Source: a virus (Duplodnaviria; Caudoviricetes). From it: a DNA stretch of 64,000 bases. This document shows, piece after piece, positions 7,978-48,663 of the stretch (positions are counted from its first letter, which is position 1; every line of letters begins with the position of its first letter). The translations under genes and the position numbers were made by a program. The notes beneath the pieces are model-generated. The model made no database searches. It had not been told where the DNA came from and saw nothing but the letters and a program-made list of their open reading frames with translations. The stretch lies in the IMG/VR virus record IMGVR_UViG_3300028591_000198, positions 4,213 to 68,212 of that record; one strand, 5' to 3'.

Positions 7978-8027
7978 AAAAAAAACAAAAAAAAAAGAAG
8001 GGGCGGTTTGTGCCGCCCCATTCTTTT
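7975..8027. terminator. bidirectional terminator between convergent genes
   Basis: GAAGGGGCGG-tttgtg-CCGCCCCATTC with an A-run on the left and a T-run on the right. Confidence 0.8.
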
Positions 8028-8493
8028 ATCCCTCCTTCTTTTTGAAGCGACCCTTCTCATCCCTTTCGGGAGTAGGGGTTTCTTCTTCTGCAGGCTTTTC
8101 TTCATCAGTGGATTCCTGAGGTTTGACATCCTTGAATACGTGATCAATTACGTCTTCCGGGATGTCGACATATGTTTCTTCATGTTTGTCTTCAGACTTC
8201 TCGATGTCAGGTTTTTGGAGCTCTTCGAGTTCCTGTCCTTGCCGGATGCTTTCGGCAAGGCGTTCGTCCTGAACTTTCTGTATACGACCAAAAAGGTCGG
8301 GGCAAACATGTCCGTGATATCTCTCCTGCGGAGGAGGGGTTGTCTCCTCGCAGAAAAGATCGTCGTCTTCGAACTCGTCTGCATCGTATCTGCACCGTGC
8401 TTCTGCTTTTCGGGCGCAGACATAATTATCGATTCCCTTTTCGGCAGCGAATACTATTGCCGTTGTCGCGAGTCCTAACACTATCGCTAACAT
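8026..8493 (-). CDS. acidic protein with N-terminal hydrophobic (TM/signal) helix
   Basis: RBS AAAGGAGG before ATG 8493; MLAIVLGLATTAIVFAA then E/D/K-rich; GC-rich islet. Confidence 0.75.
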   Translation of the reverse strand: MLAIVLGLATTAIVFAAEKGIDNYVCARKAEARCRYDADEFEDDDLFCEETTPPPQERYHGHVCPDLFGRIQKVQDERLAESIRQGQELEELQKPDIEKSEDKHEETYVDIPEDVIDHVFKDVKPQESTDEEKPAEEETPTPERDEKGRFKKKEG

Positions 8494-8510
8494 AATGGTC
8501 CTCCTTTCCA

Positions 8511-8630
8511 TTATCTGAAGGAGGTCAGCCAACGGCTGGCCTCGATCAGAAATTCTTCGATATCAAGTCCGCTATCATCAGTGAGCGGATTGTCAATGAT
8601 ATCAGTTCCAGCGTAAATGATGTCTGCCAT
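8511..8630 (-). CDS. 39-aa acidic micro-protein MADIIYAGTDIIDNPLTDDSGLDIEEFLIEASRWLTSFR
   Basis: Read by hand; ATG 8630 after GGGGGTGA, TAA at 8513-8511; fills the gap between two co-directional genes. Confidence 0.65.
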   Translation of the reverse strand: MADIIYAGTDIIDNPLTDDSGLDIEEFLIEASRWLTSFR

Positions 8631-8635
8631 GTGGA

Positions 8636-8914
8636 TCACCCCCACATGGCATCGGTGGAGATATTCGTCGCAGCTGCGACGAATTCTTCGACATCGCTGT
8701 CGGTCGTGCCGACGTCACCGTCAGCAGTTGCTGCCGCTTTCTCGTCTTCGCGGCTTTTCACAAGCTTATAGACGCCGATACCGGCGCCTGCAGCAAGTGC
8801 CGCGAACAGGACGTTCTTCGCCGCTTTCTTGAGTTTCTCTTTGCGGATCTCGCGATACATCGCGATATCTTCTTCGGAAAGATTGATCTGGTTGTTCTGA
8901 TTGTTGGTAAACAT
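8636..8914 (-). CDS. small single-pass membrane protein
   Basis: RBS AAAGGAGA; basic KEKLKK then hydrophobic VLFAALAAGAGIGVY; acidic tail. Confidence 0.75.
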   Translation of the reverse strand: MFTNNQNNQINLSEEDIAMYREIRKEKLKKAAKNVLFAALAAGAGIGVYKLVKSREDEKAAATADGDVGTTDSDVEEFVAAATNISTDAMWG

Positions 8915-8982
8915 AGCTTTCTCCTTTTCTGCGGCTGCTTAAATGGGGTGCATAGCCGCGATACCCCTTCAATATTTGAACG

Positions 8983-8994
8983 TTAGAAAGGCAT
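8983..8994 (-). other. candidate minigene ATG CCT TTC TAA in an early leader
   Basis: Preceded by AGGAAAGG and embedded in a GAAAGG/CCTTTC hairpin. Confidence 0.25.
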
Positions 8995-9008
8995 AGTAAG
9001 ATTTACCT

Positions 9009-9043
9009 TTCCTTCTATTCATATTAATAATATATATATGAAA
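9009..9043 (-). promoter_or_regulatory. putative early promoter, copy 1
   Basis: TTTCATATATATATTATTAATATGAATAGAAGGAA, 34/35 identical to 24168-24202. Confidence 0.7.
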
Positions 9044-9059
9044 TATCAAAAAAGTAATC

Positions 9060-9083
9060 ATATGGGGGCTTTCGCCCCCATAT
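9060..9083. repeat. GGGGC/GCCCC hairpin repeat
   Basis: ATATGGGGGC-tttc-GCCCCCATAT. Confidence 0.85.
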
Positions 9084-11861: not shown

Positions 11862-11886
11862 TCATTTAAATTATATATTTAAATGA
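11862..11886. promoter_or_regulatory. AT-rich inverted repeat in a divergent promoter region
   Basis: TCATTTAAAT-tatat-ATTTAAATGA; the minus strand resembles the early motif (ATATATAATTTAAATG). Confidence 0.45.
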
Positions 11887-13851: not shown

Positions 13852-13947
13852 TTATGTATCAAAGATATTCTTGAATTGAATAGATACATAATTATGCCGA
13901 TATTCAATACTCAAGAATATCTAAAAATCATAAGGAGGAAACATGCC

Positions 13948-14886
13948 ATGTCAACAGCCTATTCTCAAATGTATCCTGGTGATGTGAATTTCCTTGACAG
14001 TGTCGAATCGTATATGATGAAATCCAATGTTCAGACAGGTTTGACACCACAGGAAAATCTCGCCATCACGGAACAAGCCCGCACAGCATTGTATTCTTAC
14101 GATGTTCAGTGTATGCCAAGAATCGCGGACAAGATCCTTCATGCGAATATGGATATCGATCAGGAAGCAAGAGCTCTCTGGATCGCTTTCTATAATCATT
14201 CGCTTGATCCGGTGTTTGTCAAATTCTTGATGCAGTACCTGCACGGAAGAAGTGATACAATCCTGAACGGAAAAATCGGTGCACTCTTGACCAAGGTCAT
14301 CGGTAAGTATGTCGAAGATCATCTGAAGAAAGAGAAGACCGATGGAAAGAAGTCCGATAAAAAGGACTCCAAGGAGAAGAAAGAAGAGAGCGACGATGTT
14401 CTTGATAATATTAAGCATATCGAAATCGCTGTCGAAAAGCTTCTCGGCTCCACTGCAATTACAATCGAACAGTTCTGTGGAAATCTCTCTCACGCAGATG
14501 CATTGTATATTGCTTCCTGCATTGCTATGAGCTCTCAAGAAACAATTACTGAGATTTTGAATTCAGATCTTCCGATTACTGCAGATCTCTTCAATGAGTT
14601 CACACCATATGATCCGCTTGTCATGGCGGCGTTGAGATTAAAGAAGTCTGAAGTTCCGCTGAAGCCGACTGCGAATCAGACGGCATTCCTGGAATCTCTG
14701 AAGCGTTGGGTATTCGATAAACTGGATACCATCAATGGCGGTGCATATAAGTGTTATCAGTTCCTGGTATATACATACGGATCCGTGAAACCGGATGTCT
14801 CTCCGTATTATATCCAGATCAAGGACTGCGGCACCATTAAACCCAATCTGATTCAAGCGGCGAAGCAGATTGTGAATAGCAAATAA
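13948..14886 (+). CDS. hypothetical protein
   Basis: RBS AAGGAGG before ATG 13948; C-ending codon bias. Confidence 0.8.
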   Translation: MSTAYSQMYPGDVNFLDSVESYMMKSNVQTGLTPQENLAITEQARTALYSYDVQCMPRIADKILHANMDIDQEARALWIAFYNHSLDPVFVKFLMQYLHGRSDTILNGKIGALLTKVIGKYVEDHLKKEKTDGKKSDKKDSKEKKEESDDVLDNIKHIEIAVEKLLGSTAITIEQFCGNLSHADALYIASCIAMSSQETITEILNSDLPITADLFNEFTPYDPLVMAALRLKKSEVPLKPTANQTAFLESLKRWVFDKLDTINGGAYKCYQFLVYTYGSVKPDVSPYYIQIKDCGTIKPNLIQAAKQIVNSK

Positions 14887-22346: not shown

Positions 22347-23795
22347 ATGATGAATATCGAAAAGACTACAACAGGTTTGATTATTCGTGAATCAACACCT
22401 GAAGTGAAGCAACTTGTGCTTCAATACTTTTCTCTCCAGAATCCATTGAGAGAGTTCTTTGTATACAGCGGAGATGACCCAGATCATAAACCGATTCTGG
22501 GTCATGAACACGATGTCATTTACATTACTTCTGGCTTCTTGAAAATAAATAATCCAAAGATTCAGAAGTTAAAAATCAATTCCACAAAAGAGGTTCCGAC
22601 ACCAAAAAAGATTTCTTTGGCAATGAATCGTGAACCTCGATCAAGGTTGCAAGAGGATTGTATCAAAATGATGACAACTTCATCATCTGATAAAATCACT
22701 GTTGAACTCAAGCCCGGAGTTGGAAAGACGTTTATTGCATTATACTCTGCAGCAAAACTCGGTTTGAAACCATTGATTGTTGCACCAACTTCTCTGCTGA
22801 AGAATCAGTGGATTGACAATATCGTTGAACTCGGTATTGATAAGAATGACATCGCAACAAAGATATGGGATGCTCCTGACAAGAAAGTTTGTGTTGTTAC
22901 AATATCTTCTTTGGAAGGAGCACTCAGAGATGATTGGAATGGTCTGCTGAAGACACTGGATAAATCTTCATTCGGAATTAAGGTTATCGATGAAGCACAC
23001 CTTCATTTGAAAGGTATTCTGAAATTTGATGCTCTGTGTAATATCAAACATAATTGGTATTTATCAGCAACATTGGGTAGATCGGATCCTTCAGAGGATA
23101 GGATTCTGAATCGAGCTTTATCCGATGCAGAACGATTCATTGGAAATTCTTCATACGAAGAGTATCAGAAAGAATATGTCCAAGTGTATCTTCAGGATAT
23201 TTACTATTTCCCATCATCAAAGCTTTGTGAGAAGTATTTCAAATATGGCAAGAAAGGATTAATCCGTGCTTCATATTATAATATGCTTATGAATTATCGC
23301 GGAGGACAACCTTTCATCAATAATATTCTCACATTGATGAAACGAGCCAAATCGATTATCAATTATGACGGAAAGATATTGCTTCTTGTTCCACTGATAT
23401 CAATCATTGATCGGGTTCTTATTGCAATGAAGAATGATCCATTCTTTAGCAAATATACATTCGCAAAAGTCGATGGTTCTATGCCTCTAAAAGTACGACA
23501 AGAAGCATTCGAATCAAACTTTATTCTATCAACATCATTGTCTATGGGCACTGGTGTTGATGTTTCGAATCTAGGTGTAGTCGTCAACTTTGACCAATAT
23601 TCTTCTTCGATCATAGGTGAGCAGATTTTCGGCCGACTTAGAGATAGAGGGAAAGAGACGTATTATATCGACATTTGTGATTATGTGAAACAAGCAGGCG
23701 CTATCACAAACTGGGGTAAAAAGAGACGTTTATTGATTCCATATTATCCTGGAGCAAAACAGGATATGAAACGTTTACCAAGAATCATGTGTTGA
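22347..23795 (+). CDS. superfamily 2 helicase (UvsW-like)
   Basis: PGVGKT, IDEAH, LSAT, GTGVD, QIFGRLR. Confidence 0.85.
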   Translation: MMNIEKTTTGLIIRESTPEVKQLVLQYFSLQNPLREFFVYSGDDPDHKPILGHEHDVIYITSGFLKINNPKIQKLKINSTKEVPTPKKISLAMNREPRSRLQEDCIKMMTTSSSDKITVELKPGVGKTFIALYSAAKLGLKPLIVAPTSLLKNQWIDNIVELGIDKNDIATKIWDAPDKKVCVVTISSLEGALRDDWNGLLKTLDKSSFGIKVIDEAHLHLKGILKFDALCNIKHNWYLSATLGRSDPSEDRILNRALSDAERFIGNSSYEEYQKEYVQVYLQDIYYFPSSKLCEKYFKYGKKGLIRASYYNMLMNYRGGQPFINNILTLMKRAKSIINYDGKILLLVPLISIIDRVLIAMKNDPFFSKYTFAKVDGSMPLKVRQEAFESNFILSTSLSMGTGVDVSNLGVVVNFDQYSSSIIGEQIFGRLRDRGKETYYIDICDYVKQAGAITNWGKKRRLLIPYYPGAKQDMKRLPRIMC

Positions 23796-23809
23796 TAGAC
23801 TCTATAATA

Positions 23810-23925
23810 ATTCCATATATCCATGGGTGATTACACTTGTGCACGAGTGTATACATCATGATTGCAATGTATCAAGGTACCTCCAATATGTTGCATAAAT
23901 GATATGACATGCTTTATGATGGAAT
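23810..23925. ncRNA. candidate structured small RNA A
   Basis: ATTCCAT/ATGGAAT closing stem; internal TACACTTG-tgca-CGAGTGTA and TGCAA/TTGCA stems; possible 14-aa ORF 23875-23831 (-) after GGAGG. Confidence 0.4.
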
Positions 23926-23934
23926 GATACAACG

Positions 23935-32602: not shown

Positions 32603-33325
32603 ATGAGCACGTTTAATCGTGAAAATGAATCTGATATGTATAAAACAATTCAATGGATGAATCCAAATATCCAATATGTATTCAGAAAGAATGTTGTAGA
32701 ATACGATATGCAATCAGCATCTTTGTCTGTATCCAGACGATTTCATTTATTGGATGATGCATTGATCGATACATACGAACGCATGCCAAAAGATAAACGT
32801 ACAAAAGCCATTGGTTTGATTCAAAGGGATGATAAAGAATATTCTGAAAAGATGATCAATGGAATCTTACAAACACGAAAAGAATTCTTACAAATGAATC
32901 GACTAGATGAATCAAATATCATATCATTACATTCAGATGCGATTATGTTTATTCAAACAGATGATATCATTGATCATGTTGATAATGTGCCTTTCATTAA
33001 AAAGAATACATGGACAGGATACATGCGATATGATCGTGTTGAGATGTTCTATTCAGATGGTGTTGTGGAATATAAAGGTATCCCAAAACAAATGTTGCAG
33101 CAACATACAATGGGGATGTGTCAGCACATACTGAATATATTCAACAAGATTGATCAATGTGATGATGACATCTATCAATATTTAAGAAAGTTTCAAAGAC
33201 AATATTTACAGAATAAACTTCCGGAATATTATTATCTTCCATTTGGAAATACCGGAAAGTTTATGTATGAGAATTTGAAATTACTATCATTTTTGGCCCA
33301 GGTTGTAATGCATGAAATGAGGTGA
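32603..33325 (+). CDS. putative divergent family-B DNA polymerase palm subunit
   Basis: EYDMQSA (motif A-like) and SLHSDAIMF (motif C-like) in only about 240 aa. Confidence 0.45.
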   Translation: MSTFNRENESDMYKTIQWMNPNIQYVFRKNVVEYDMQSASLSVSRRFHLLDDALIDTYERMPKDKRTKAIGLIQRDDKEYSEKMINGILQTRKEFLQMNRLDESNIISLHSDAIMFIQTDDIIDHVDNVPFIKKNTWTGYMRYDRVEMFYSDGVVEYKGIPKQMLQQHTMGMCQHILNIFNKIDQCDDDIYQYLRKFQRQYLQNKLPEYYYLPFGNTGKFMYENLKLLSFLAQVVMHEMR

Positions 33326-33329
33326 ATTT

Positions 33330-33977
33330 ATGATACAGCCGTTATATGTGTTCAAATGGAAAACCATCAATGGAAAAAATTCAAATGAAGTATTCACATA
33401 TGACAGGAATGATATGATATTATTTTTATCACAGCATGGATTTTCAACAGAAGAAAATAACAATGTGACAGTTGTGATGGATGATGTGGCACGAGACGAT
33501 ATCAATTATATTCGAATCTATACATTTGGATCCAGAAAGAGAGATCGGTTTTATCGAATTGCAACAACTGAAACAATCATGTCAACAATCGTAATGGATG
33601 TTGGTGCAGAATTATCAGACGCCATGACATTTGGTGCATGTGCATTGAGAGGAGAAATCGAAATCTTTCATAAGATTGATAAATTGATTCAATCATTGGA
33701 TTATGTGTATATCATGGATGGTTACATTGCTTCTATGAATGAAACGGATGAATATTATGACAGATATCATGAGAACAATGGATATCCATATTATGAAGAT
33801 ATTACAAAGAACGCAGATGATTCATTCTTATACGATTCATTATATAATGATTCTGTTCCACAGAAACCTGTACAACCATTTACCATAGAAACGTATGTAA
33901 ACATCTTTACAGATGTATATATCATCGGAAGGAGTGTTAAGCAACATGGCAAGCAAACCACAACCAACAATTTCTGA
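33330..33977 (+). CDS. hypothetical protein
   Basis: RBS GAGGTG; 215 aa. Confidence 0.75.
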   Translation: MIQPLYVFKWKTINGKNSNEVFTYDRNDMILFLSQHGFSTEENNNVTVVMDDVARDDINYIRIYTFGSRKRDRFYRIATTETIMSTIVMDVGAELSDAMTFGACALRGEIEIFHKIDKLIQSLDYVYIMDGYIASMNETDEYYDRYHENNGYPYYEDITKNADDSFLYDSLYNDSVPQKPVQPFTIETYVNIFTDVYIIGRSVKQHGKQTTTNNF

Positions 33978-34344
33978 ATTAGTGGAATCACACAAGCCAA
34001 AGAACTTCAAATATTGTTATGTATTCAAAGATGATGAATCATTAATCGAATTGGAGAAATCGGGATTTGATTTCAATCTATTGGATACAATTAACAATCC
34101 GGAATTAATGAATGCAGCAAAAGAATCATCATTCAAGTATTATGACAGAGATATCGTTGCACATGCAAAACAACCATATCCATTGGAAAAAGGTGTATTA
34201 ATGACAAAACAAATGGCAACAAAAACAGACAAGAAATTATTCCAAGTCGGAGTATCATTCTTTGATCATGATAACGTATCATATGTCGCAGTCAAATTAT
34301 GTTATGAAAAATTTGATATTTACGAAATATTTATATTAGCATGA
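33946..34344 (+). CDS. hypothetical protein
   Basis: RBS AAGGAG before ATG 33946. Confidence 0.7.
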   Translation: MASKPQPTISELVESHKPKNFKYCYVFKDDESLIELEKSGFDFNLLDTINNPELMNAAKESSFKYYDRDIVAHAKQPYPLEKGVLMTKQMATKTDKKLFQVGVSFFDHDNVSYVAVKLCYEKFDIYEIFILA

Positions 34345-34381
34345 AAATATATGTGGGGGCATTTGCCCCCACATATATTTT
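34344..34381. repeat. GGGGC/GCCCC hairpin repeat, bidirectional terminator
   Basis: Perfect 17-bp stem AAAATATATGTGGGGGC-attt-GCCCCCACATATATTTT. Confidence 0.9.
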
Positions 34382-34388
34382 TTTTTGT

Positions 34389-35498
34389 TTACGAACCAGG
34401 AGCCGCGTTGGACTCGTACGGATTCGAGATATCCGTAGAAGTACCATTCGGATCGTTGTAGATTCTGGAGTGATCGGCAGGTTCGAGGTTGTGCTCCGGA
34501 AGAGCATTGCGCTGAACTCTGCGATTGTTGGTCTTGAATACAGGAATGTTGCCAACACCAGACTGAACCGCATCGAGATCCGGTCTCTTGCCCTTGTTGA
34601 ACATATCGGTGTTGATATCGCCGTATGTAGTCGGGTTGTCGTTGGTGAAGAAAGCATCGCCTGCACCAGGGTTGTAGTTGAGCTTGTTGCCAAACACAGC
34701 AAACTGCTGAACATATCTGGCTGCAAGGTCATTTACATATGCAGACTCAACGAACTGGCAGTTGTAGCTCAGAGTCAGTGTCTGCAGAGCAGCAGTACCA
34801 GAAGCATTGGAGTTGAAGAGATCATATCCAACCTTGGCCTGAGGGATACAACCCAGAGCCATGATTGCACCTTCAACACGTGCACCAGAACGATCCAGCG
34901 CAATGATCAGGAACTCTGCAACTTCCCATGCGGGGGACGGCTCCAGAGCAACACCAGAACCAACACCAGAAGCCGGAGTAAAGATTCTCTGAGGAATCTT
35001 ATTCTCATCGACAGAACCTGCTACGAGACCCTGATAATGCGTGAGACCAGTGATCTCATCAGCAATACCATCGATCCACATGTTGTGGAAGTTTGCTGCC
35101 GGACGACCAACCAGTTCAGGAATGGTGATCTGAAGTGTCTGGTTATTGTTTGCATTCTGCTGAGTAGGAATCGGGATACTTCTGGATGCAAAACCACCCT
35201 GAAGGTTCACAGATGCCAGAGAATGGTCTCCAGCATTCACCTGGATGCCGGTGTTGTAATACTCAACCAGCTTCTTGTAAGTGGTGAATTCCTTATTCGT
35301 ATATGCGTTGGTGCCATCACCGAAGTAATGCATCAAGAAATAAGGTCCGCGATACATGACGCATATAACACGGTTTGTAGTTTCGGGGTTCAGACTCCGG
35401 AGTGTATGAACATCCGGAGTCAGACCGCCGAGCATACCTGTATACTGTGAAAGATCGCCATTGTATTCGCGAATACCAGTTTGCAAGCTAATCGGCAT
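34389..35498 (-). CDS. probable tail tube protein
   Basis: Directly downstream of the sheath gene; high-expression codon bias; QITIPEL...HNMWIDGI tube-like motif. Confidence 0.6.
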   Translation of the reverse strand: MPISLQTGIREYNGDLSQYTGMLGGLTPDVHTLRSLNPETTNRVICVMYRGPYFLMHYFGDGTNAYTNKEFTTYKKLVEYYNTGIQVNAGDHSLASVNLQGGFASRSIPIPTQQNANNNQTLQITIPELVGRPAANFHNMWIDGIADEITGLTHYQGLVAGSVDENKIPQRIFTPASGVGSGVALEPSPAWEVAEFLIIALDRSGARVEGAIMALGCIPQAKVGYDLFNSNASGTAALQTLTLSYNCQFVESAYVNDLAARYVQQFAVFGNKLNYNPGAGDAFFTNDNPTTYGDINTDMFNKGKRPDLDAVQSGVGNIPVFKTNNRRVQRNALPEHNLEPADHSRIYNDPNGTSTDISNPYESNAAPGS

Positions 35499-39372: not shown

Positions 39373-39402
39373 TATATGCAGGGGGACATCCCCCTGCATA
39401 TA
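39373..39402. repeat. hairpin repeat between co-directional genes
   Basis: TATATGCAGGGGG-acat-CCCCCTGCATATA. Confidence 0.85.
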
Positions 39403-40379: not shown

Positions 40380-40560
40380 ATCAGAATCTCCTTTCATCAA
40401 AAAAAAAAATAAATCGATTTCTCGATTATATTGTTGAGTTTCTAAAAATGAATAAACCATAAGGATTTATCGTCGCGAAAAACGTAATCCTATTCATTCT
40501 TTTTTATCATTTTTATTCATTTTCCCTATATCTAATATAACATATGAATCCTGGCTCCGC

Positions 40561-40584
40561 CAGATTAAAAATATACATATGAAA
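40561..40584 (-). promoter_or_regulatory. putative early-type promoter, copy 3
   Basis: TTTCATATGTATATTTTTAATCTG. Confidence 0.5.
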
Positions 40585-40585: not shown

Positions 40586-40627
40586 AAAAATAAAATATCG
40601 ATAAAATAATCTCGATATTTTATTTTT
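40586..40627. terminator. AT-rich 16-bp hairpin, probable terminator
   Basis: AAAAATAAAATATCGA-N10-TCGATATTTTATTTTT. Confidence 0.6.
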
Positions 40628-40641: not shown

Positions 40642-40809
40642 TTAGAATACATCCGACTTATGTAAGCCGAATGTATGGTTGATTGCAATCAATGTATCTT
40701 TGATAACATTGATGGGTGCTGTGGTTGTGTTACAGCTTTCAACCATTGTGTCTGTTCTTGCTTCCGATGACCGGTAATCATCAGATGTCAGGATATGACA
40801 GTCGTACAT
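40642..40809 (-). CDS. 55-aa micro-protein MYDCHILTSDDY...HKSDVF
   Basis: Read by hand; GAAGGTGGTG before ATG; degenerate promoter motif at 40856-40835. Confidence 0.55.
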   Translation of the reverse strand: MYDCHILTSDDYRSSEARTDTMVESCNTTTAPINVIKDTLIAINHTFGLHKSDVF

Positions 40810-40868
40810 ATTATTCACCACCTTCCGGATATATTCAAATGAATTATATATGTACGAGAGAATGAAAA

Positions 40869-40894
40869 TGTATGGGGGCGAAAGCCCCCATACA
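40869..40894. repeat. GGGGC/GCCCC hairpin repeat
   Basis: TGTATGGGGGC-gaaa-GCCCCCATACA. Confidence 0.85.
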
Positions 40895-40903: not shown

Positions 40904-42424
40904 TTATCTGCTTTCGAATTTGGTTAACCCGAATAATCCATTCAAACACTCTTTTTCAATTGGGAATGCTGCACGGAGATCTGGACGAACACAATATACT
41001 TTGGAATACATTAAGTCTTCAGCTTGTTTATTTGCTTCGTCTGACCATATACCTGTGCTCTTAACCGTATCGCCATCATAGTCTCCTCCCAGATTCACCA
41101 ATCGGGAATTCGCCATGTTAATAACATCGATGAATTGTGTTGATACTTGAGCATGAGACATCTGTGGATCAATGATCGGATATGTGTTGTATACTTCTCC
41201 ATTGAATTGTATTGGAGTCGTTTTGTTCGTAGACAATACATGAACCTTTGTAAAGAATGCACCGAGATGATCACCAATCGGATATCGAACGGTGTAAACA
41301 TGCCGATCAGCTTTCACAGTGACATTGTAGCAACATAGATAAATGACGTCTGTCAATGTTAGTGGACGAGACACGGGCTGTTTTGTTTTCAGATCCAATG
41401 CATTAAAGATAATCGGTTTTGATTGTTTTGGATCCATAAATATGATACGGAATCTCGCACCCGGATTCTGCATAAAGATCTTGATCAAATCTTCAATCAT
41501 CTTATCGTCATAAATATTGTCGATATCTGCACGACTGATTTCATCCGGGTTTGGATGAATCGATACCAAATTATCATATGAAAGAAATTGTCTCATAGAG
41601 AATTTGATAAACGGCTTAAACATGGACACGATTGACATCAATGGATATCCTGTTCGGAATATTCCAACTTCTGGATTGTTTGAATTGTAACTCGGCGCGG
41701 AGATAACGTTTCGAACAGTCGCAACGGTATTCTTTGCGAGAAGGTTCTTTTGAAGATATCCCGTCTTTGTACCACAGAATTTATGAAGATACGTATATGT
41801 TTCAATCACCGTATCCTGAATCTGATTATATACTTTATATACATCAGAGGTTGTGTGTGCTGTGACACTCTTGTATCCGAGCAGCTTCATATAAATAGAA
41901 TTCAGCTCAGACTTGACGGGTCTTCCATTTCGAACACCTGTTGGTCTCATTGATGTTGGTAACACCAGCACTTTGTCAATGAACAATAATCGTTTTGGTG
42001 ATTTGGTGAGAATATCGATGTTTTGTTCACGACGAGTACGCAGTGTTTTTGCAACATCAATCTGATCCCATATATTATAGAGATCTTTCAGACCGCAATA
42101 CTTTCCTTCCGGTGATTCTGTTAATATACCATCAACAATATCACATCGGATTTCTGCATACGCCATCTTTCGAATGATTCCTCCTGAACGTTGGATGATG
42201 GTCTTTCCAATATTCGGATTGAAAACATGGATCGGGAGTTTGATATATCCACATCTGTATTTCTGTTCCTCTTCTGTTTGACCAAATATTTCCTCCGAGA
42301 ATAATCCCGTCGGATTGAACTGGTTTGTGGAACGATAAATCTGTGGAGATGTCACTTCTTTTAGATCATTGACCTTAATATCCAGATCGATGTCATATAA
42401 AGATTGAATTTTAATCGTAATCAC
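40904..42424 (-). CDS. rpoC: phage multisubunit RNA polymerase, beta' N-terminal catalytic subunit
   Basis: GLFSEEIFG, GYIKLP, VLPTSMRP, KTGYLQKNLL, catalytic GGDYDGD. Confidence 0.9.
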   Translation of the reverse strand: MITIKIQSLYDIDLDIKVNDLKEVTSPQIYRSTNQFNPTGLFSEEIFGQTEEEQKYRCGYIKLPIHVFNPNIGKTIIQRSGGIIRKMAYAEIRCDIVDGILTESPEGKYCGLKDLYNIWDQIDVAKTLRTRREQNIDILTKSPKRLLFIDKVLVLPTSMRPTGVRNGRPVKSELNSIYMKLLGYKSVTAHTTSDVYKVYNQIQDTVIETYTYLHKFCGTKTGYLQKNLLAKNTVATVRNVISAPSYNSNNPEVGIFRTGYPLMSIVSMFKPFIKFSMRQFLSYDNLVSIHPNPDEISRADIDNIYDDKMIEDLIKIFMQNPGARFRIIFMDPKQSKPIIFNALDLKTKQPVSRPLTLTDVIYLCCYNVTVKADRHVYTVRYPIGDHLGAFFTKVHVLSTNKTTPIQFNGEVYNTYPIIDPQMSHAQVSTQFIDVINMANSRLVNLGGDYDGDTVKSTGIWSDEANKQAEDLMYSKVYCVRPDLRAAFPIEKECLNGLFGLTKFESR

Positions 42425-42439
42425 ATCCTTTCGGAATTT

Positions 42440-42452
42440 TACCGAAACGTTT
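42440..42452 (-). promoter_or_regulatory. putative late promoter AAACG-N6-TA
   Basis: Minus strand reads AAACG tttcgg TA. Confidence 0.45.
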
Positions 42453-42465: not shown

Positions 42466-42489
42466 GATGTGGGGCATATGCCCCACATC
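42466..42489. repeat. GGGGC/GCCCC hairpin repeat between divergent units
   Basis: GATGTGGGGC-atat-GCCCCACATC. Confidence 0.85.
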
Positions 42490-42494
42490 TAAAA

Positions 42495-42625
42495 TGAATG
42501 GATACGGCAATGCATCATGATGACCAGTCATGATGCATTCAACCTTTTTGGAGGTTTAACAGCATAGTCAACAATGGAAGTCTAACACACGGCTTGTGTA
42601 GACGAGTTCATCACATGAACTTACA
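42495..42625. ncRNA. candidate structured small RNA C
   Basis: Perfect 12-bp AATGCATCATGA/TCATGATGCATT stem, plus AACCT/AGGTT, TCTA-CAC/GTG-TAGA and AGTTCA/TGAACT stems; no ORF with an RBS. Confidence 0.45.
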
Positions 42626-42638
42626 AATTTGTCGACAT

Positions 42639-42660
42639 GATATGTATATTATTAAATCGC
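42639..42660 (+). promoter_or_regulatory. putative early-type promoter, copy 4
   Basis: GATATGTATATTATTAAATCGC. Confidence 0.45.
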
Positions 42661-42734: not shown

Positions 42735-44453
42735 ATGCCAAAGATTAAAGATGATAAAATAACGATCATTGAAAGTGATGTTAAAAAGATTCAGACCCGT
42801 CCGACTATGTATATATCATCACTTGGTGAGATGGGTGTATTACATCTTTGCAAAGAAATCATTGATAACAATCGTGATGAATGTTTCAAAGAAGAATCTC
42901 CTGGTAATACAATTCATATTGAAATCACCGACGATTATATTATGTCAAAAGATAATGGAAGAGGTATTCCGACAAAATTATTGCGTGTCGTCCATGAAAC
43001 AAACCAAGCCGGTTCAAATATGACTAGAAGTCATGGTACAACTGCCGGTGAAAATGGAACAGGTACAACTGCTGTTCTGGCAATGTCCAGCTATTTGAAA
43101 GTCATCACGTTAAGACCATCGGAAAAGAAACGATTGACATTGGTATATAAAGATGGAGAGTTGGAATCCGAGACTTTAGAAGATTATAAAGAAAAGGAAT
43201 CCGGTCTGATCACAGTATTCAAACCGAGTAAAAAGATTCTTGGTGTGTCTAAGATACCTGTAGATCTTCTTGTATCATGGATTGAAGATTTCGCATATAC
43301 TTTACCGACAAACATTAACATGTTCTATTCTGTCCATGGTGAACAACGTCAAATTCATCATAAAAATCTGAATGAATATTTCGATCAATTCATTCCAGAA
43401 GATAAACGAATGAGTGTCCCGGTAATCATCAATACAAAAGGAAAATTGAAAGAGATTATTCAGGACAAAGAATATGATAGAAAATTCAATGTCGAAGCAT
43501 GTGTAATGTATTCGGATCCATCATATCATGGTGAAGATATTCGTAAGTCATGGATGAATATGATATGGACTGTTCAAAATGGATCTCATGTCAATGGTGT
43601 TATCAATGGACTATCCAGATATCTGACAGATCGTGTTATAAAACGAAATAAGAAATTGGAAGAAGACGGAGATTTGAAACGCGATATTCTGTCACATCTC
43701 CATGTTGTTGTCAAAGCTACATGTGATTATGCACACATGTTTTCATCTCAGGCAAAATCAACAGTATTCCCAAGACAGTTGACAACGGCTATCACAGAAG
43801 CGGTGTATAAAGAATTATGTGATATGAATCAGACAAAACTCAATGATCTGGTTGAAATCGTCATTCAGAATAACCGTGTTCGAAAAGAAGGGGAACGTGT
43901 CAGAAACATTGCCACTGAGACCAAGAAGAAACAATGGTCGACACCGGATTCGTATTTACCATGTGCTTCTATCAAAACACCGCAACCAAAAGAAATATTC
44001 CTCTGCGAAGGAAAATCTGCACGTGGAGGTATCAGTTCTGCAAGAAATGCAAAGTTCCAAGCGATTCTGATGTTCCAGGGTAAAGCGCCGAATGTATGGG
44101 ATATGACATTGGATCAAGCATTGAAATCCACTGTCTGGTTTGATTTGGTCAAACTTCTTGGATGTGGTATCGGATCCAATTTTGATATCAAGAAATTGAA
44201 TTTTGATAAGATCATTATCGCGACAGATGCTGATGTGGATGGATATCATATTCGTGTTTCTATCTGTGCATTCTTCTTACGCTTCATGCCAGAATTATTG
44301 GAAGCTGGTAAAGTATATATTGCGGAACCGCCTCTGTATAAATTGATGCGTGGAAAGAATATTTCATATGTCGCATCCCAGACAGAATATATCCAAGAAT
44401 GTATTCGCAGTGTTGGTAATATTCAATTGGAATTTCCGGAAGTAAAAGATTAA
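42735..44453 (+). CDS. gyrB: type IIA topoisomerase B subunit, N-terminal part (GHKL ATPase + TOPRIM)
   Basis: EIIDN, DNGRGIP, GENGTG, CEGKSA, DADVDG, EPPLY; RBS AAGGAGG. Confidence 0.9.
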   Translation: MPKIKDDKITIIESDVKKIQTRPTMYISSLGEMGVLHLCKEIIDNNRDECFKEESPGNTIHIEITDDYIMSKDNGRGIPTKLLRVVHETNQAGSNMTRSHGTTAGENGTGTTAVLAMSSYLKVITLRPSEKKRLTLVYKDGELESETLEDYKEKESGLITVFKPSKKILGVSKIPVDLLVSWIEDFAYTLPTNINMFYSVHGEQRQIHHKNLNEYFDQFIPEDKRMSVPVIINTKGKLKEIIQDKEYDRKFNVEACVMYSDPSYHGEDIRKSWMNMIWTVQNGSHVNGVINGLSRYLTDRVIKRNKKLEEDGDLKRDILSHLHVVVKATCDYAHMFSSQAKSTVFPRQLTTAITEAVYKELCDMNQTKLNDLVEIVIQNNRVRKEGERVRNIATETKKKQWSTPDSYLPCASIKTPQPKEIFLCEGKSARGGISSARNAKFQAILMFQGKAPNVWDMTLDQALKSTVWFDLVKLLGCGIGSNFDIKKLNFDKIIIATDADVDGYHIRVSICAFFLRFMPELLEAGKVYIAEPPLYKLMRGKNISYVASQTEYIQECIRSVGNIQLEFPEVKD

Positions 44454-44457: not shown

Positions 44458-44482
44458 TATGGGCGGGATCATCCCGCCCATA
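44458..44482. repeat. hairpin lying inside the split gyrB
   Basis: TATGGGCGGGA-tca-TCCCGCCCATA. Confidence 0.85.
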
Positions 44483-44535: not shown

Positions 44536-45159
44536 TTGTTTATGAGAACATCCGCAAAGAAATTCATTGAAGAGTCCTTTGACTATCTGGAGACATTAAC
44601 AGAAGTGTCATTGGATCGTTCGGTGAATCGATATTTATTGGAACACATCGCACATGGATTGATGATCTTTGGTGGTGTCGATGGATTCATAAAGAATGTT
44701 GATAAATGGATCCGGACATTGGTAAAGACATATCCGGAATTGGGATTCGATCATCAGTCCAATCAGATTGTTGCGGTTATTGATTATACCGATCAAGTTG
44801 TCGTGATTGATGAATCGTTGTATATCGATCTGACATACGTTATTAATATACAAAAGAAATATGGTATGCTTGTCTCTTATGATGGAAAGACTGTAACGAT
44901 CGCGAGATTCTTTGAAGATATTCAGAGAAAATATCCACAAATCAAAGACCGTTATAAAGGTCTCGGTTCTTCTGATGCAAAGGTATCAAAAGAAATCATC
45001 ATGGATCCAGCAACAAGAAGAATCTTCCGAGTTGATGCGTCTGACGTAAATGTCATGAGAATATATGATACATTAATCGGAAAGAACAAGGAAGATATTC
45101 AAGCAAGAAAAGAAATGATCATGAACTTTGAATGGAAACCGTCCGACATCGATACATAA
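44536..45159 (+). CDS. gyrB: type IIA topoisomerase B subunit, C-terminal part
   Basis: RYKGLGS...MDPATRR...ARKEMI, the conserved GyrB tail; own RBS GAGGAGG. Confidence 0.85.
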   Translation: MFMRTSAKKFIEESFDYLETLTEVSLDRSVNRYLLEHIAHGLMIFGGVDGFIKNVDKWIRTLVKTYPELGFDHQSNQIVAVIDYTDQVVVIDESLYIDLTYVINIQKKYGMLVSYDGKTVTIARFFEDIQRKYPQIKDRYKGLGSSDAKVSKEIIMDPATRRIFRVDASDVNVMRIYDTLIGKNKEDIQARKEMIMNFEWKPSDIDT

Positions 45160-45172
45160 GGAGGAATGTACA

Positions 45173-47173
45173 ATGGATTGGATGCATGATGCAAAATATG
45201 AACTGTTTGATGATCTGATCAATTTAGACGAGATCACAACAGAAGAACAGATTCATGAATTATTGGGAGATCCTATTGTATTAGAACGATACGTGAATAA
45301 CTATGACTGGTTGTTCAATCGTGTTGTTGGTATTGCGGAACTTTGTTGGGGTAACAAGGATAAACATGGAAAGAAACTCCAGACGGTTCCGATTAAACTG
45401 AAAATCCATATCGATGACAAAGAGACGAAGGAAACATATGCAACACAACTGAATCGTTTGATGTATACATTATCATTCTTGCGTCCAATCATTATGTATC
45501 TGGACGATATCAAGATCGAAGATTTCTTGCTGAGAAATTATCTGACTGAAAAAGAACGTTGTAAGATTCAAGATAAGATCGTTCGTGTATTACAACAATT
45601 CGGAACTCCAATCACGGAAATCCAAGAAAAGATGGCTCGGTTATCTTTGGATTGGAAGATGTTAATGATTGATTTCTCCAAGGCAGATATGCAAGTATAC
45701 ACTGCAGAAAATCTGTTCTTAAATCATTATCGTGATTCTGAAGTCATCCGGGAAATCAATAATACCGAGTATCCTCCTGATATGCAAACTGCGGATATCG
45801 TTGAGGAGAATGCCAGACGTTATCAAATTCTGGAACAGGTGATGGTTGAACGCGGTAATCCGTTCTTCATCAATAACAAGTATACGAAACTGGTGAAACC
45901 GAAACAGATGGAGGAATTATATATCAACTTCTCCCAGATTCCGGATGGAAGAAATATCATTCCTGTCATCATGAATGGTAATGGATTCCGTGCTGGATAT
46001 CATTCATTACCAGTATTCTATACAGGTGCAATTGCAGCACGTGTTCCTGATATTATGAATAAGGATTACATGGGTGCTGCCGGATACTTCAACAGAAACT
46101 TGATGATGTTGGCATATGGCACAGTTTCATCAACGGTATGGGATTGCGGTTCTCAAAATCCAATCCCAATTGATATTGATGAAACCATGCTCGAGATGTT
46201 TGACGGAAGATACTATTATGAAGAAAAGGGTTCTGGAATTCTGAAGGTTCTGCATAAGGATGATAAATCCAAACTCGGGAAGAAATTGTGGTTCCGTTCT
46301 CCGTGTACATGTAATCTGAACGAAGACGTTTGCCATGTATGTTATGGTCAACGCGCTTTGAAAGTCGGAGACTTGAAAGGCGGTTTCATCTATACAACAG
46401 AATTGATGACTTCTCGAGTTTCACAGAATATACTTTCTGCAAAGCATCTGTTGAAATCAAATGCGGAAAAGATTGAGTATTCGGAATCGTTTGATAAATT
46501 CTTCGTGGTTGATATGTCTACCATCATTCCAAAGGATGATAAACGATTCGATATTTATATCCGTGAGGATTATCTGGATAATATCTCCGAACAGTTCACA
46601 TGTTATATCGGAAAAGATATGATTCCTGTAACGATTTCAAATTATGCATCCATCTCTATTTCGGAAAGTATACTGGATAAATGCAAGGATGTTGTCATTG
46701 ATGATGTCACATATTACAAGATTACATCCCATAAGATATTGGATGCAGGTGGACAATTTGCAGTCGTCATCCCGATTAATATCATGATGACAAAGAAGTA
46801 TATGGATATCATGAAACTGTTTGAATCCGATATCACAAAATTCCAAACCATATCCGAAATTGTCATGGCTCTTGCAAGAATGTGTCATGGATTGATTCCG
46901 ATTCTTTCAACACACGGAGAGATCCTGATTGGACATCAGATTCGTTCTGTAGAGAATCGTCTGTTACGTCCTGATTGGACTGTGCCGGATCAGCAGTATC
47001 AGATTATGAGATTGAAAACCGTCCTTCAGAATATTGAATCGTTCTCTACCGCGATGTCATTTGAACAAACCAAACATCATTTGTATCATTCGATATTTGA
47101 TGAACGAAATGAAATCAACCGTGTCGGTCCTCGTGGATTCATTGATTTCATGTTTGGTGAGGAAACATTGTGA
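45173..47173 (+). CDS. rpoC: phage multisubunit RNA polymerase, beta' C-terminal subunit
   Basis: Bridge-helix-like AGYFNRNL, Zn site FRSPCTC...VCHVCYG, trigger-loop-like QNILSAKH. Confidence 0.85.
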   Translation: MDWMHDAKYELFDDLINLDEITTEEQIHELLGDPIVLERYVNNYDWLFNRVVGIAELCWGNKDKHGKKLQTVPIKLKIHIDDKETKETYATQLNRLMYTLSFLRPIIMYLDDIKIEDFLLRNYLTEKERCKIQDKIVRVLQQFGTPITEIQEKMARLSLDWKMLMIDFSKADMQVYTAENLFLNHYRDSEVIREINNTEYPPDMQTADIVEENARRYQILEQVMVERGNPFFINNKYTKLVKPKQMEELYINFSQIPDGRNIIPVIMNGNGFRAGYHSLPVFYTGAIAARVPDIMNKDYMGAAGYFNRNLMMLAYGTVSSTVWDCGSQNPIPIDIDETMLEMFDGRYYYEEKGSGILKVLHKDDKSKLGKKLWFRSPCTCNLNEDVCHVCYGQRALKVGDLKGGFIYTTELMTSRVSQNILSAKHLLKSNAEKIEYSESFDKFFVVDMSTIIPKDDKRFDIYIREDYLDNISEQFTCYIGKDMIPVTISNYASISISESILDKCKDVVIDDVTYYKITSHKILDAGGQFAVVIPINIMMTKKYMDIMKLFESDITKFQTISEIVMALARMCHGLIPILSTHGEILIGHQIRSVENRLLRPDWTVPDQQYQIMRLKTVLQNIESFSTAMSFEQTKHHLYHSIFDERNEINRVGPRGFIDFMFGEETL

Positions 47174-47183
47174 GGTGACGAGA

Positions 47184-48248
47184 ATGAATAATTATTCTGT
47201 AAAACAAGTTTCATCTGGCCCATTGACAGGATTGATCAAACCGAAGTACAAATGGATTGCAGCAAATCTCGGGGAACTATATGACGTTCCCCGGGGTTTG
47301 GATGTATTCATTGATTTCAATACACTCATCAAAGCATTATCTGGATATCAGAAATATCTGAATTATCTACCATTTGCAGGACAAGATGTTCAGGTAGATT
47401 TGATTTCTTCATTCTTATCAACATTAAACCATTGGAAGAATTTCACAAAGAAATGGGATAATGTTCGAATCATCGGAATCATGAATTCATTCGAAATGGA
47501 TGAGAATATTGCAGAACGTTCTGTGCTTAAATCGTATCTGGTTCCACATGTTCATATGTATAAGAATGATCGATTTAATCAATTCACATATTTCGTGAAT
47601 GAATCTGTCAAGAGTGTTCAGACCATTCTGAAGTATGTTCCGAACATGTATCTGATTTCATGTGATCAATTCGATTCCTATATGATTCCAAATGTGTTAG
47701 ACGATTATGAACACAGCGGAAGAAAACGTATTGTCATATCCGGAAATTCATTGATGACAAATTATCATTACATGCCGAACACAAAAATCATCTACGCGAA
47801 ATATCGATATAAAGGTATGCAACAATTGACAAATCCTCTTGACATTGTTCAATCCATCACAAAGGTTGATGAAGATATCGTTGAAGAATTTACCAAGAAC
47901 GAAGTATTCTATAATTTATTGAATACAATCGTCGGTGATTTTGATCGAGGTATTGTTGGATTGACTCAAATCGGTATCACGACATTTGCATATAATCTGT
48001 TGAGAGGTGTCGAACAAAATCGAATCCATGAGAATCCAAAGAGTGTTGAATCATGTTTACCGGTTATCGATAAACCATATCACGATTATATTTTGAAATC
48101 ATATCCGTTGGTTGACATTCATCAACATACAAAGATGATTCCAAAATCATCCATACAGAACGTGAAATCAAATATGATTGACATGGTTGATATTGATGGA
48201 CTGAGAAGTCTATCTATTGATGGTCTGAACTTGCTTGAATTGCTATAA
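47184..48248 (+). CDS. 5'-3' exonuclease/flap nuclease (T4 RNase H-like)
   Basis: N-terminal VFIDFNTL and H3TH-like IVGDFDRGIVGLTQIG. Confidence 0.6.
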   Translation: MNNYSVKQVSSGPLTGLIKPKYKWIAANLGELYDVPRGLDVFIDFNTLIKALSGYQKYLNYLPFAGQDVQVDLISSFLSTLNHWKNFTKKWDNVRIIGIMNSFEMDENIAERSVLKSYLVPHVHMYKNDRFNQFTYFVNESVKSVQTILKYVPNMYLISCDQFDSYMIPNVLDDYEHSGRKRIVISGNSLMTNYHYMPNTKIIYAKYRYKGMQQLTNPLDIVQSITKVDEDIVEEFTKNEVFYNLLNTIVGDFDRGIVGLTQIGITTFAYNLLRGVEQNRIHENPKSVESCLPVIDKPYHDYILKSYPLVDIHQHTKMIPKSSIQNVKSNMIDMVDIDGLRSLSIDGLNLLELL

Positions 48249-48253
48249 ACATA

Positions 48254-48287
48254 TAAGATTATTATGCGGGTAAGATTATTATGCGGG
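48254..48287 (+). repeat. 17-bp perfect tandem duplication
   Basis: TAAGATTATTATGCGGG twice, overlapping the left arm of a hairpin. Confidence 0.9.
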
Positions 48288-48306
48288 GCTGTCCGCCCCG
48301 CATAAT
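48278..48306. repeat. GGGGC/GCCCC hairpin repeat
   Basis: ATTATGCGGGGC-tgtcc-GCCCCGCATAAT. Confidence 0.85.
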
Positions 48307-48308
48307 CT

Positions 48309-48395
48309 CATGAATTTGGCAATGCATGTCAGTGTGTACCACTGGTCGACAAAAGTCGTACCAAATCCATACACAGCTGTAGTTTGCATTTCATT
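48309..48395. ncRNA. candidate structured small RNA D
   Basis: Nested stems AATGCA/TGCATT, TGTGTA/TACACA and CGAC-aaaa-GTCG. Confidence 0.35.
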
Positions 48396-48396
48396 T

Positions 48397-48420
48397 TTTC
48401 ATATGTATATAATTAATGTG
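48397..48420 (+). promoter_or_regulatory. putative early promoter, copy 5
   Basis: TTTCATATGTATATAATTAATGTG. Confidence 0.65.
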
Positions 48421-48422
48421 TA

Positions 48423-48663
48423 GCAAAGGGAATCATCAAGTCATGCAATCTCGCATAGAGGAGATGATAGCATGTTTAGAATTGATCACGAAACATCAAC
48501 AAGAATCGAACGGATCATTCGTTTGATGGAATCCGGAAATATCCGGATCAATAACACTGAACCCTCTGCACCACCAGAGGTTCAAGAACTCGTCGATGAA
48601 GAACAACGGCTGATAGAATACAGCCGTTCAATCGTATCAGCATGACTTGATTTATCCCTTTGC
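48423..48663 (+). ncRNA. panhandle-closed leader RNA E
   Basis: 48423-48446 pairs with 48640-48663 (12 bp + 3x3 loop + 9 bp); internal hairpins are also present. Confidence 0.6.
48472..48645 (+). CDS. 57-aa micro-protein MFRIDHETSTRIERIIRLMESG...SRSIVSA
   Basis: RBS GAGGAG; read by hand; the stop codon lies within the panhandle. Confidence 0.65.
   Translation: MFRIDHETSTRIERIIRLMESGNIRINNTEPSAPPEVQELVDEEQRLIEYSRSIVSA

Follow-up and report, generated by a model that had tools for sequence, protein, structure and literature searches.

Five places in one stretch of phage DNA raise the question of whether a repeated grammar is written between its genes. The stretch is a 64-kb window (64,000 nucleotides, analysed at its full length; GC 0.39) out of one 68,212-bp contig, IMG/VR record IMGVR_UViG_3300028591_000198. 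At each of the five loci a GC-rich hairpin and an AT-rich promoter-like motif stand close together, at some of them with a densely paired stretch. A reading made from the sequence alone (hereafter the sequence-only reading) had joined hairpin, structured RNA, promoter and a micro-ORF leader (ORF, open reading frame) into one unit of an early RNA-and-peptide programme. We consider it likely that the grammar is instead transcription punctuation: early promoters of the type known from phage AR9 and terminators, arranged as modules that resemble the promoter early stem-loops (PeSLs) of T4-type phages, around variable early ORFs without relatives (ORFans), plus two separate non-coding RNA (ncRNA) genes, called here small RNA (sRNA) A and B. 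We read the polymerase that serves each motif, the timing, termination activity, module recombination and RNA function from motif statistics, positions, conservation and covariation.

An AT-rich motif that matches AR9 early promoters

The motif CATATRTATATWATTAAT occurs at six sites in the window, with 0.97 expected, and none of 100 shuffled sequences reaches six, which bears out the conserved motif first noticed at these loci. Four loci hold one site each and the fifth holds two, with none outside them, and all six are intergenic and co-oriented with the next gene. A G lies exactly 6 nt past TATAWT in every case, all six sites fit TRTATATWAT-N6-G, and the element as a whole takes the AT-rich form tttTC-ATATRTATATWAT-N6-G(+1) over 18-20 nt (UTR in the list below, untranslated region; aa, amino acids).

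9023-9040, minus strand: early promoter P1, an exact motif match, predicted +1 G at 9020, 5' UTR of ~105 nt
24171-24188, plus strand: early promoter P2, predicted +1 G at 24191, with a counterpart after sRNA-B in the relatives G001 and G002
40839-40856, minus strand: early promoter P3a, with 3 mismatches, predicted +1 at 40836, hairpin 40869-40894 12 nt upstream
40564-40581, minus strand: early promoter P3b, predicted +1 at 40561, 180-nt 5' UTR ahead of a 321-aa gene, AT-rich hairpin and T9 upstream
42639-42656, plus strand: early promoter P4, predicted +1 at 42659, before the topoisomerase II gene 42735-44453, in the same place in 11 relatives
48400-48417, plus strand: early promoter P5, predicted +1 at 48420, before a 57-aa ORF, the AAA ATPase gene 48692-49891 and a 230-aa ORF

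In the relative G001, a genome of 262,694 bp (98% complete) that we compared over its full length, 31 sites fit a somewhat looser pattern and about 25 of these are convincing, which puts the number of copies at about 25-30. A GC hairpin and a T-run lie directly upstream of at least 14 sites, and many sites begin GAATARAAG.

The early promoter consensus of AR9, AAATATATATTAT-(6N)-G(+1), was defined by differential RNA sequencing (dRNA-seq), primer extension and chloramphenicol experiments, and the activity of these promoters in the absence of new protein synthesis led to their attribution to the injected virion RNA polymerase (RNAP) (Lavysh et al. 2017, PMC5312081). At P1, ATATATATTAT-N6-G is identical to this consensus. 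Every jumbo phage that encodes RNAP has its own AT-rich motif of ~10 nt near -10 before early operons (reviewed by Sokolova et al. 2020, PMC7598289).

The window carries three genes for fragments of the RNAP beta/beta' subunits (27143-29356 and 40904-42424 on the minus strand, 45128-47173 on the plus strand), which were identified by PHROG searches along with a large terminase, a helicase, an SbcC-like nuclease, a topoisomerase II and virion proteins. Split multisubunit RNAPs are a feature of AR9/PBS1 and phiKZ-like phages. Given the match to the early consensus of AR9 and the split RNAP genes in the window, the virion RNAP of the phage itself very likely uses the AT-rich motif as its promoter, as the sequence-only reading had supposed.

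The nearest cultured phages are the Firmicute jumbo phages LPJP1, BpSp, Goe21, PBS1 and AR9, at 25-30% amino acid identity by tblastn, by which the RNAP genes of the window also match those of LPJP1, Goe21 and BpSp; 24 kb of the window gave no megablast match against GenBank phages. Relatives in IMG/VR measure 165-278 kb and are 63-78% identical on one RNAP subunit, and the public sequencing runs that contain window sequence come from sheep, bovine and goat gut. Judged by these matches, the window is part of an uncultured jumbo phage of the ruminant gut, of the two-RNA-polymerase type and distantly akin to the AR9/PBS1-like phages.

The early promoters serve core genes too. Behind P4 lie the topoisomerase II gene and then more genes, including one for an RNAP subunit; behind P5 lies the AAA ATPase gene, assigned by a Pfam AAA match; and SbcCD is probably also driven by an early promoter. 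Two weaker matches to the early motif were seen. The first (11862-11886), a perfect AT palindrome of 25 nt, lies between gene 11917 and the divergent SbcC-like gene; the second (13880) stands before gene 13876-14886, with a match in the same place in G001 (26898).

GC-rich hairpins as putative terminators

A GC hairpin of the family ATATGGGGGC-N4-GCCCCCATAT, with the core GGGGC-N4-GCCCC and often flanked by ATAT, is present at all five loci, as claimed, but it is not special to them: there are at least 16 copies in the window, by an exhaustive search for perfect stems of at least 8 bp. The matches to the hairpin pattern are intergenic in 13 of 13 cases, although intergenic DNA makes up only ~6-7% of the window, and most of the hairpins stand 0-15 nt past stop codons, four convergent gene pairs among them. 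Since they are intergenic and mostly directly after stop codons, we read the hairpins as intrinsic terminators at the ends of transcription units.

9060-9083: GC hairpin of 10 bp with a GAAA loop on the minus strand, putative terminator of gene 9287-9087, with a T-run and then P1 behind it
24129-24150, plus strand: GC hairpin with a GAAA tetraloop, putative terminator of sRNA-B, with a T-rich run and then P2 behind it
40869-40894: GC hairpin 10 nt past the RNAP-subunit gene (40904-42424, minus strand), followed by P3a
42466-42489, minus strand: GC hairpin in a divergent intergenic region, putative terminator of sRNA-A, with a T-rich run on the minus strand only in 12 of 12 homologs
48278-48306, plus strand: GC hairpin 30 nt past gene 47034-48248; the equivalent hairpin in relatives abuts the promoter
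23935-23956: GC hairpin at the end of a 140-nt stretch past the helicase gene (unit A, 23796-23934), specific to the window's lineage
39373-39402, 44458-44482, 50613-50636, 8000-8019 and 24812-24839: further GC hairpins placed like terminators

The hairpins at 23935, 24129 and 42466 follow no ORF, and two of these three end the non-coding units sRNA-B and sRNA-A. The third, at the end of unit A, has no counterpart in G001 or G003, and the stretch before it folds unremarkably (23800-23934, z -1.66).

Two observations concern the surroundings of individual hairpins. A direct repeat of ~17 nt, taagattattatgcggg, at 48256-48292 lies directly before the 5' arm of hairpin 48278-48306 and overlaps it. 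The large subunit of topoisomerase II is split into ORFs 42735-44453 and 44536-45159 (plus strand), which match PHROG_543 at positions 18-573 and 545-636, respectively; the 82-nt spacer between them holds the family hairpin 44458-44482 and a fresh ribosome-binding site (RBS).

Putative terminator-promoter modules around variable early genes

A hairpin and an early promoter within ~20 nt of each other make up a composite module. Such modules lie at 9086-9010, 24129-24207 and 40894-40836 and occur in relatives as well; the first two, which contain P1 and P2, are ~90% identical over ~75 nt. The genes behind the modules, and those behind P3b and P5, are as follows.

8026-8914, minus strand: early cassette 1, with ORFs of 92 aa (8914-8636), 39 aa (8630-8511) and 155 aa (8493-8026), GC 0.46-0.53
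24327-24839, plus strand: early cassette 2, a 158-aa ORFan (24327-24803, GC 0.49) with hairpin 24812-24839 and a T-run, absent from G001
40642-40809, minus strand: early cassette 3a, a 55-aa ORFan without a G001 homolog, with an AT-rich hairpin (40601-40623) and T9 as its putative terminator
40379-39414, minus strand: 321-aa ORF behind P3b
48472-48645, plus strand: 57-aa ORFan between P5 and the AAA ATPase gene, absent in the relatives L188-L191

Two of the three ORFs of cassette 1 have predicted transmembrane segments, and the cassette, which finds only a weak partial match in G001, ends in hairpin 8000-8019 and a long T-run. The small early genes have a GC content of 0.41-0.53 as compared with 0.39 overall, and they have no G001 homolog, with one weak exception. 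Searches of the early ORFans against Pfam, PHROG and the ESM Atlas gave no lead; a part in host takeover or anti-defence is possible and conjectural.

Relatives differ at these places. At the junction before the AAA ATPase gene, the hairpin, T-run and promoter are kept in five relatives (L187-L191), and behind this promoter there is nothing in L188-L191 and an unrelated 147-aa gene in L187. Contigs from other samples agree with the window over the promoter module and part from it to both sides of ~24155-24204. Differing or absent genes at the same junctions agree with the sequence-only reading that the islets are variable accessory insertions among core genes, and from these comparisons we infer recombination at the modules. 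A sheep-gut metatranscriptome run (X22) contains an exact contig at 24487-24796, within the cassette-2 gene, and others on several core genes. Two candidates were set aside. The cassette-2 protein is unrelated to the gene inserted at locus 5 of G003, and a contig of the source run that joins 23780 to 24160 has a short side of 36 nt, may stem from a relative and was not used.

The RBS-led micro-ORF proposed as a leader did not hold up. Behind 23 early promoters, of which 5 lie in the window and 18 in G001, the first ORF led by a Shine-Dalgarno sequence has at least 40 codons in 15 cases and at most 18 codons in 5-6, the latter under a lenient Shine-Dalgarno rule that is able to yield short ORFs by chance. 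Across the 23 promoters, neither the sequence nor the position of the short ORFs is conserved. For the GAATAGAAGGAA that is conserved behind the start, initial transcribed sequence is a better reading than the RBS of a peptide.

A late-type promoter motif

A second motif, AAACG-N6-TAA, has three sites in the window, all of them intergenic, behind a hairpin and 15-40 nt before a start codon.

4903-4916, plus strand: late-type promoter motif after hairpin 4852-4882 and 26 nt before a 1011-aa gene, with a G001 counterpart at 17420
42439-42452, minus strand: late-type promoter motif before the RNAP-subunit gene 40904-42424, conserved in relatives
50666-50679, plus strand: late-type promoter motif after hairpin 50613-50636

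In G001, 9 of 17 matches to AAACR-N6-TAR are intergenic where 1.0 would be expected, a 9-fold enrichment, and seven of these nine sit 24-31 nt before an RBS and start codon. The late promoter of AR9, which is read by the non-virion RNAP, is AACA-N6-TA/G (PMC5312081; PMC7598289). The AR9-like phage Goe21 likewise has a hairpin, a T-run and a promoter before its homolog of gene 40904-42424, the promoter there being AACA-N6-TA. By analogy only, we take AAACG-N6-TAA as the late-type promoter of this clade.

The start of the RNAP-subunit gene behind the second of these sites (42422-42440, minus strand) is unusual. The annotated GTG lies 1 nt past a GAAAGGA RBS, and relatives begin MQIQGLYD where the window has an ATT codon (IKIQSLYD); the start codon may be non-canonical.

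Two candidate non-coding RNA genes

Of the densely paired units that had been seen at the five loci, two are conserved with covariation (23979-24118 and 42490-42622). No such unit separates hairpin and promoter at loci 1 and 3, where the folding of the 5' UTRs is that of shuffled sequence (cassette 1, z -0.8; locus 3, 40380-40557, z -1.26). The unit at locus 5 is a 93-nt insert that is missing at the same junction in the five relatives L187-L191.

48307-48399, no strand assigned: 93-nt insert between the hairpin and P5, which folds well (z -3.17 / -2.65)

ATGAAT..GGCAATGCAT is common to this insert and the 3' part of sRNA-A; GGCAATGCAT occurs in the window at 42506 and 48318 only. The insert may be a lineage-specific partial duplicate. 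The comparison with shuffled DNA proposed for such units does not decide the matter by itself: the insert reaches z -3.2, but random 140-nt windows of the phage average z -0.76 and lie below -3 in 4 of 30 cases, so that a single-sequence z alone does not discriminate, and it is covariation that decides.

The first conserved unit, sRNA-B (23979-24150, plus strand), lies between the helicase and terminase genes, upstream of P2.

23968-23979, plus strand: late-type motif AACG-N6-TA of sRNA-B, with a predicted +1 A (23979) at which the closing stem begins
23979-24118, plus strand: sRNA-B core, closed by a stem of 11 bp (AATCCGGAGTG / CACTCCGGATT) and containing three internal hairpins and the conserved ACACCAUUCG

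One internal hairpin carries a GCGGG loop and one a CCUCC loop, and the GAAA-looped GC hairpin 24129-24150 follows the core. A covariance model built from a single sequence (R1) finds one sRNA-B copy per genome in six genomes and nothing else in 388 kb. The element stands after the helicase gene in G001, G002, G003 and G004 and is found on one further contig; it is absent in G005. In six of six homologs the promoter-like motif keeps identical spacing (AACA-N6-TA in G002), and the terminator loop is GNRA or UNCG on the plus strand. The alignment guided by the model places 97.7% of cells in pairs, as compared with 36-49% in slid controls, and compensatory changes occur in 18 of 37 pairs, values that none of 500 shuffles reaches; there are seven G-U pairs and no A-C pair. 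The fold of the single sequence does not stand out (23957-24128, z -0.9/-1.25). A kissing interaction between the GCGGG and CCUCC loops was dropped, its pairing being imperfect and without covariation.

The second, sRNA-A (42622-42459, minus strand), occupies a 310-nt divergent region with the RNAP-subunit gene leftward and the topoisomerase gene rightward, on the strand opposite the topoisomerase gene.

42620-42633, minus strand: promoter-like GACA-N6-TAAG of sRNA-A, predicted +1 A at 42622, back-to-back with P4
42459-42622, minus strand: sRNA-A, with a 5' hairpin, a GCCG-loop hairpin, the motifs CCAUUGU and CCUCC, a long hairpin that varies and, last, a GC terminator and its U-rich tail

Twelve distinct homologs show the same order of elements, from (A/G)ACA-N6-TAAG to the GC hairpin, the T-rich run and the late-type promoter of the RNAP gene, and covariance model R2 recovers all 12. 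The motif is conserved in spacing and sequence among them and reads AAACA-N6-TAAG in the L006 group; the promoter assignment is less certain in the window, with its GACA, than in that group. The 5' hairpin GUUCAU/AUGAAC is invariant, the stem of the GCCG-loop hairpin differs in almost every relative, and the long hairpin differs in every one. All 12 homologs fold better than their shuffles (z -3.0 to -7.0). In the alignment, 93% of cells pair, as compared with 33-46% in slid controls, with compensatory changes in 28 of 36 pairs, which none of 500 shuffles reaches, and with 15 G-U as against 6 A-C. By synteny, the cultured relatives Goe21 and LPJP1 have no divergent topoisomerase gene and no sRNA-A counterpart.

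Because each unit has an AR9 late-type motif (AACR/ACA-N6-TA) and its own hairpin terminator, and one of them lies on the strand opposite the neighboring early gene, sRNA-A and sRNA-B are probably separate, late, non-coding RNA genes that are not driven by the early motif. The proposal that they belong to the early programme is thus not sustained. The covariation in relatives that had been looked for is found for both.

Searches for known families came back empty. At gathering thresholds, no Rfam 15 family has a match anywhere in the window, and a search of loci 2 and 4 at E up to 1 gives chance-level matches only (E at least 0.13); neither sRNA has a blastn match among 50,697 GenBank phage records. 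An exact 19-mer search returned only G001-like contigs. Loose DNA patterns (GGTTCAT..ATGAACTTA and CACCATTCG..CCGGATT) in viral contigs mostly hit by chance and, after filtering by context, yielded 3+1 new true homologs. MAFFT/RNAalifold on the raw sequences misaligned the variable hairpins, and single-sequence covariance models with realignment were used instead. We propose the two RNAs as candidate new ncRNA families, which are the only part of the system that looks undescribed.

Both RNAs share a common anatomy: each occurs once per genome, the unpaired motifs CCUCC(UU) and CCAUU are conserved, and the stems vary freely. Among Firmicutes, RsaE and RoxS are trans-acting sRNAs with C-rich anti-Shine-Dalgarno motifs. 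As a tentative idea, to which we give rather little weight, sRNA-A and sRNA-B could be trans-acting late regulatory RNAs whose CCUCC(UU) and CCAUU motifs mimic the anti-Shine-Dalgarno sequence of 16S rRNA and pair with GGAGG...AUG, shutting off translation of early phage or host messages, or that act as decoys for a host RNA-binding factor. If so, the clade would time its expression post-transcriptionally as well as through two polymerases.

Alternative explanations

The structured regions could instead act as DNA or in cis, for example as an origin, a packaging signal, an operator, an insulator for the early promoter or 3'/5' UTR structures. Most of the stems are perfect Watson-Crick palindromes that would form in single-stranded DNA too; both elements adjoin replication or packaging genes, with an early promoter directly behind them; the invariant GTTCAT-loop-ATGAAC is placed against P4 as an operator might be; and in G001 and G003, sRNA-B begins at most 12 nt past the helicase stop codon and could be its 3' UTR. 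However, a promoter-like motif stands at fixed spacing in all homologs, even behind a terminator hairpin (in the window and in G004), the terminator with its GNRA or UNCG loop and T-rich tail is present on one strand only, G-U outnumber A-C combinations (7:0 and 15:6), and the long-range closing stem covaries. We therefore regard this explanation as unlikely.

The element at locus 4 could also be read on the plus strand, as a leader with a start-stop or mini-ORF, which would be the micro-ORF of the sequence-only reading. All 12 homologs do show GGAGG (or GGAG) followed at 7-23 nt by ATG(GA). Yet the ORF runs to anywhere from 1 to 32 codons with no frame or peptide conserved by eye, and there is no promoter-like motif on the plus strand between the RNAP gene and the element, where AAACG-N6 precedes AA, AT or AG as compared with TA on the minus strand. 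The terminator T-run on the minus strand only and the 15:6 ratio of G-U to A-C favor the minus strand as well, and CCUCC is also found on the transcribed strand of sRNA-B, where an opposite-strand ORF is not conserved. A plus-strand leader is in our view improbable.

The unified model in which hairpin, structured RNA, promoter and micro-ORF form one repeated early unit transcribed from the AT-rich motif has in its favor that the elements co-occur at five loci, that two of the structured units are real and that the motif is very likely an early promoter. Its parts nevertheless come apart. The structured units lie upstream, not downstream, of the early promoter and have a differing motif and a terminator of their own, in one case on the other strand; the hairpins, found at 16 or more places that are mostly gene ends, look like terminators in general use; loci 1 and 3 have no unit and that of locus 5 is missing in relatives; and the micro-ORFs are neither conserved nor enriched. 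We think it very unlikely that these elements form one unit.

That the AT-rich motif is a host sigma-A/sigma-70-type promoter, with early genes read by host RNAP as in the T4 PeSLs, would suit its AT-richness, its TATAAT-like hexamers and the sigma-70-like promoters of the PeSL precedent, but ~18 nt are conserved together with a fixed G 6 nt downstream, a -35 box at 17 nt is not conserved, the sequence agrees with the virion RNAP consensus of AR9 and the phage has its own RNAPs, which makes this reading very improbable.

A proposed scheme of transcription and its weak points

Taken together, the evidence is consistent with the following scheme. The injected virion RNAP would read the early promoter tttTC-ATATRTATATWAT-N6-G(+1), often directly behind a terminator in a ~75-nt module, and GC-rich stem-loops, often with a T-run, would terminate the transcription units. 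The modules would bracket small, GC-richer ORFans as early accessory cassettes that come and go through recombination at these repeats, as in T4-type PeSLs, and the same promoters would drive the core early genes for topoisomerase II, an RNAP subunit and the AAA ATPase. Later in infection, the non-virion RNAP would most likely make sRNA-A and sRNA-B, each from its late-type motif to its hairpin terminator.

Several points weigh against this scheme. The fourth base of the late-type motif is G in most sites, not the A of AR9, and the sRNA-A motif in the window is GACA, not AACA. In many hairpins the upstream gene's strand shows no clear U-tract (many, not all, have one on at least one strand), and how jumbo-phage RNAPs terminate is, to our knowledge, poorly understood. 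For recombination at the modules the evidence is comparative. The sole RNA run, X22, consists of contigs that carry no starts, ends, strand or level, may contain DNA and give nothing usable over the sRNA loci. The covariation counts of both sRNAs come from alignments fitted to the structure of the model, and in the internal helices of sRNA-B, 2-3 of the 6 rows are gapped at most pairs, so that only 3-4 sequences contribute there; the internal hairpins are present by eye in every sequence.

Further observations

The helicase gene next to sRNA-B has longer orthologs in G002 (32970-34739) and G004 (170403-172514), which give a two-piece match within one longer frame (L210-L213). They measure 590 and 707 aa as compared with 482 aa in the window and have no stops, which suggests an in-frame insertion such as an intein that the window gene does not carry.

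ARAGORN found no tRNA or tmRNA in the window. At ~244,800 of G001 (L204) there is an apparent tRNA gene cluster, with a T-arm-like GGTTCGAGTCC that adjoins a motif match. Two ORFs of 369 aa each overlap almost fully on opposite strands, at 34341-35450 (plus) and 34389-35498 (minus), with GC 0.48, and ORFs of 226, 278 and 237 aa occupy the left end of the window (515-2758).

Comparison with known systems

The early promoters, terminators and modules are known kinds of element. Jumbo-phage early promoters (PMC7598289) and PeSL cassettes (PMC2839356, PMC4122927) have already been described, and the proposal of an undescribed architecture does not extend to them. What the comparison adds is reach. 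The two-polymerase promoter code of AR9 would extend to an uncultured ruminant-gut clade whose proteins are 25-30% identical to those of AR9-like phages, which would make early and late genes of such metagenomic jumbo phages predictable from sequence. The modules suggest that PeSL-like shuffling is not restricted to T4-type phages or to promoters of the host RNAP, and the two ncRNAs supported by covariation are concrete candidates for RNA-based regulation in jumbo phages, here in a phage without a cultured host.

The likeness to AR9 is closest at the early promoters, for which the AR9 consensus AAATATATATTAT-N6-G corresponds almost letter for letter to ATATRTATATWAT-N6-G, with tens of copies per genome before early operons and with split beta/beta' RNAP subunits encoded in both. 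The tttTC 5' flank and the initial transcribed GAATARAAG are, by contrast, specific to this clade, which lives in the ruminant gut. The starts in AR9 were mapped on transcripts, whereas the window motif is known from its sequence. The late-type motif resembles AR9 late promoters in its two-block layout, its spacing and its place 24-40 nt before the starts of virion or late-looking genes, and it differs in also preceding two non-coding units; the non-virion RNAP of AR9 requires uracil in the genome.

PeSLs of T4-type phages are composite terminator/promoter cassettes that flank ORFans and serve as points of recombination (Arbiol et al. 2010, PMC2839356; Comeau et al. 2014, PMC4122927). The window shares with them the repeated stem-loop terminator joined to a strong early promoter, flanking small ORFans in variable islets between core genes, and in relatives, too, the modules delimit insertions, deletions and replacements. 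Unlike PeSLs, the window modules carry a promoter of the phage-RNAP type, which is not sigma-70-like and has no conserved -35 box, and the islets are scattered singly, not grouped in long hyperplastic regions. Recombination and mini-circles belong to the T4-type PeSLs, whereas the modules described here are known from sequence comparison.

The two RNAs, finally, are of the same general build as RsaE/RoxS-type sRNAs, with a length of ~150-190 nt, their own putative promoter and terminator, several hairpins and an exposed CCUCC-type motif able to pair with GGAGG. They differ from these sRNAs in having no sequence or Rfam relationship to them, and the long 5'-3' closing stem of sRNA-B would be unusual for that type.

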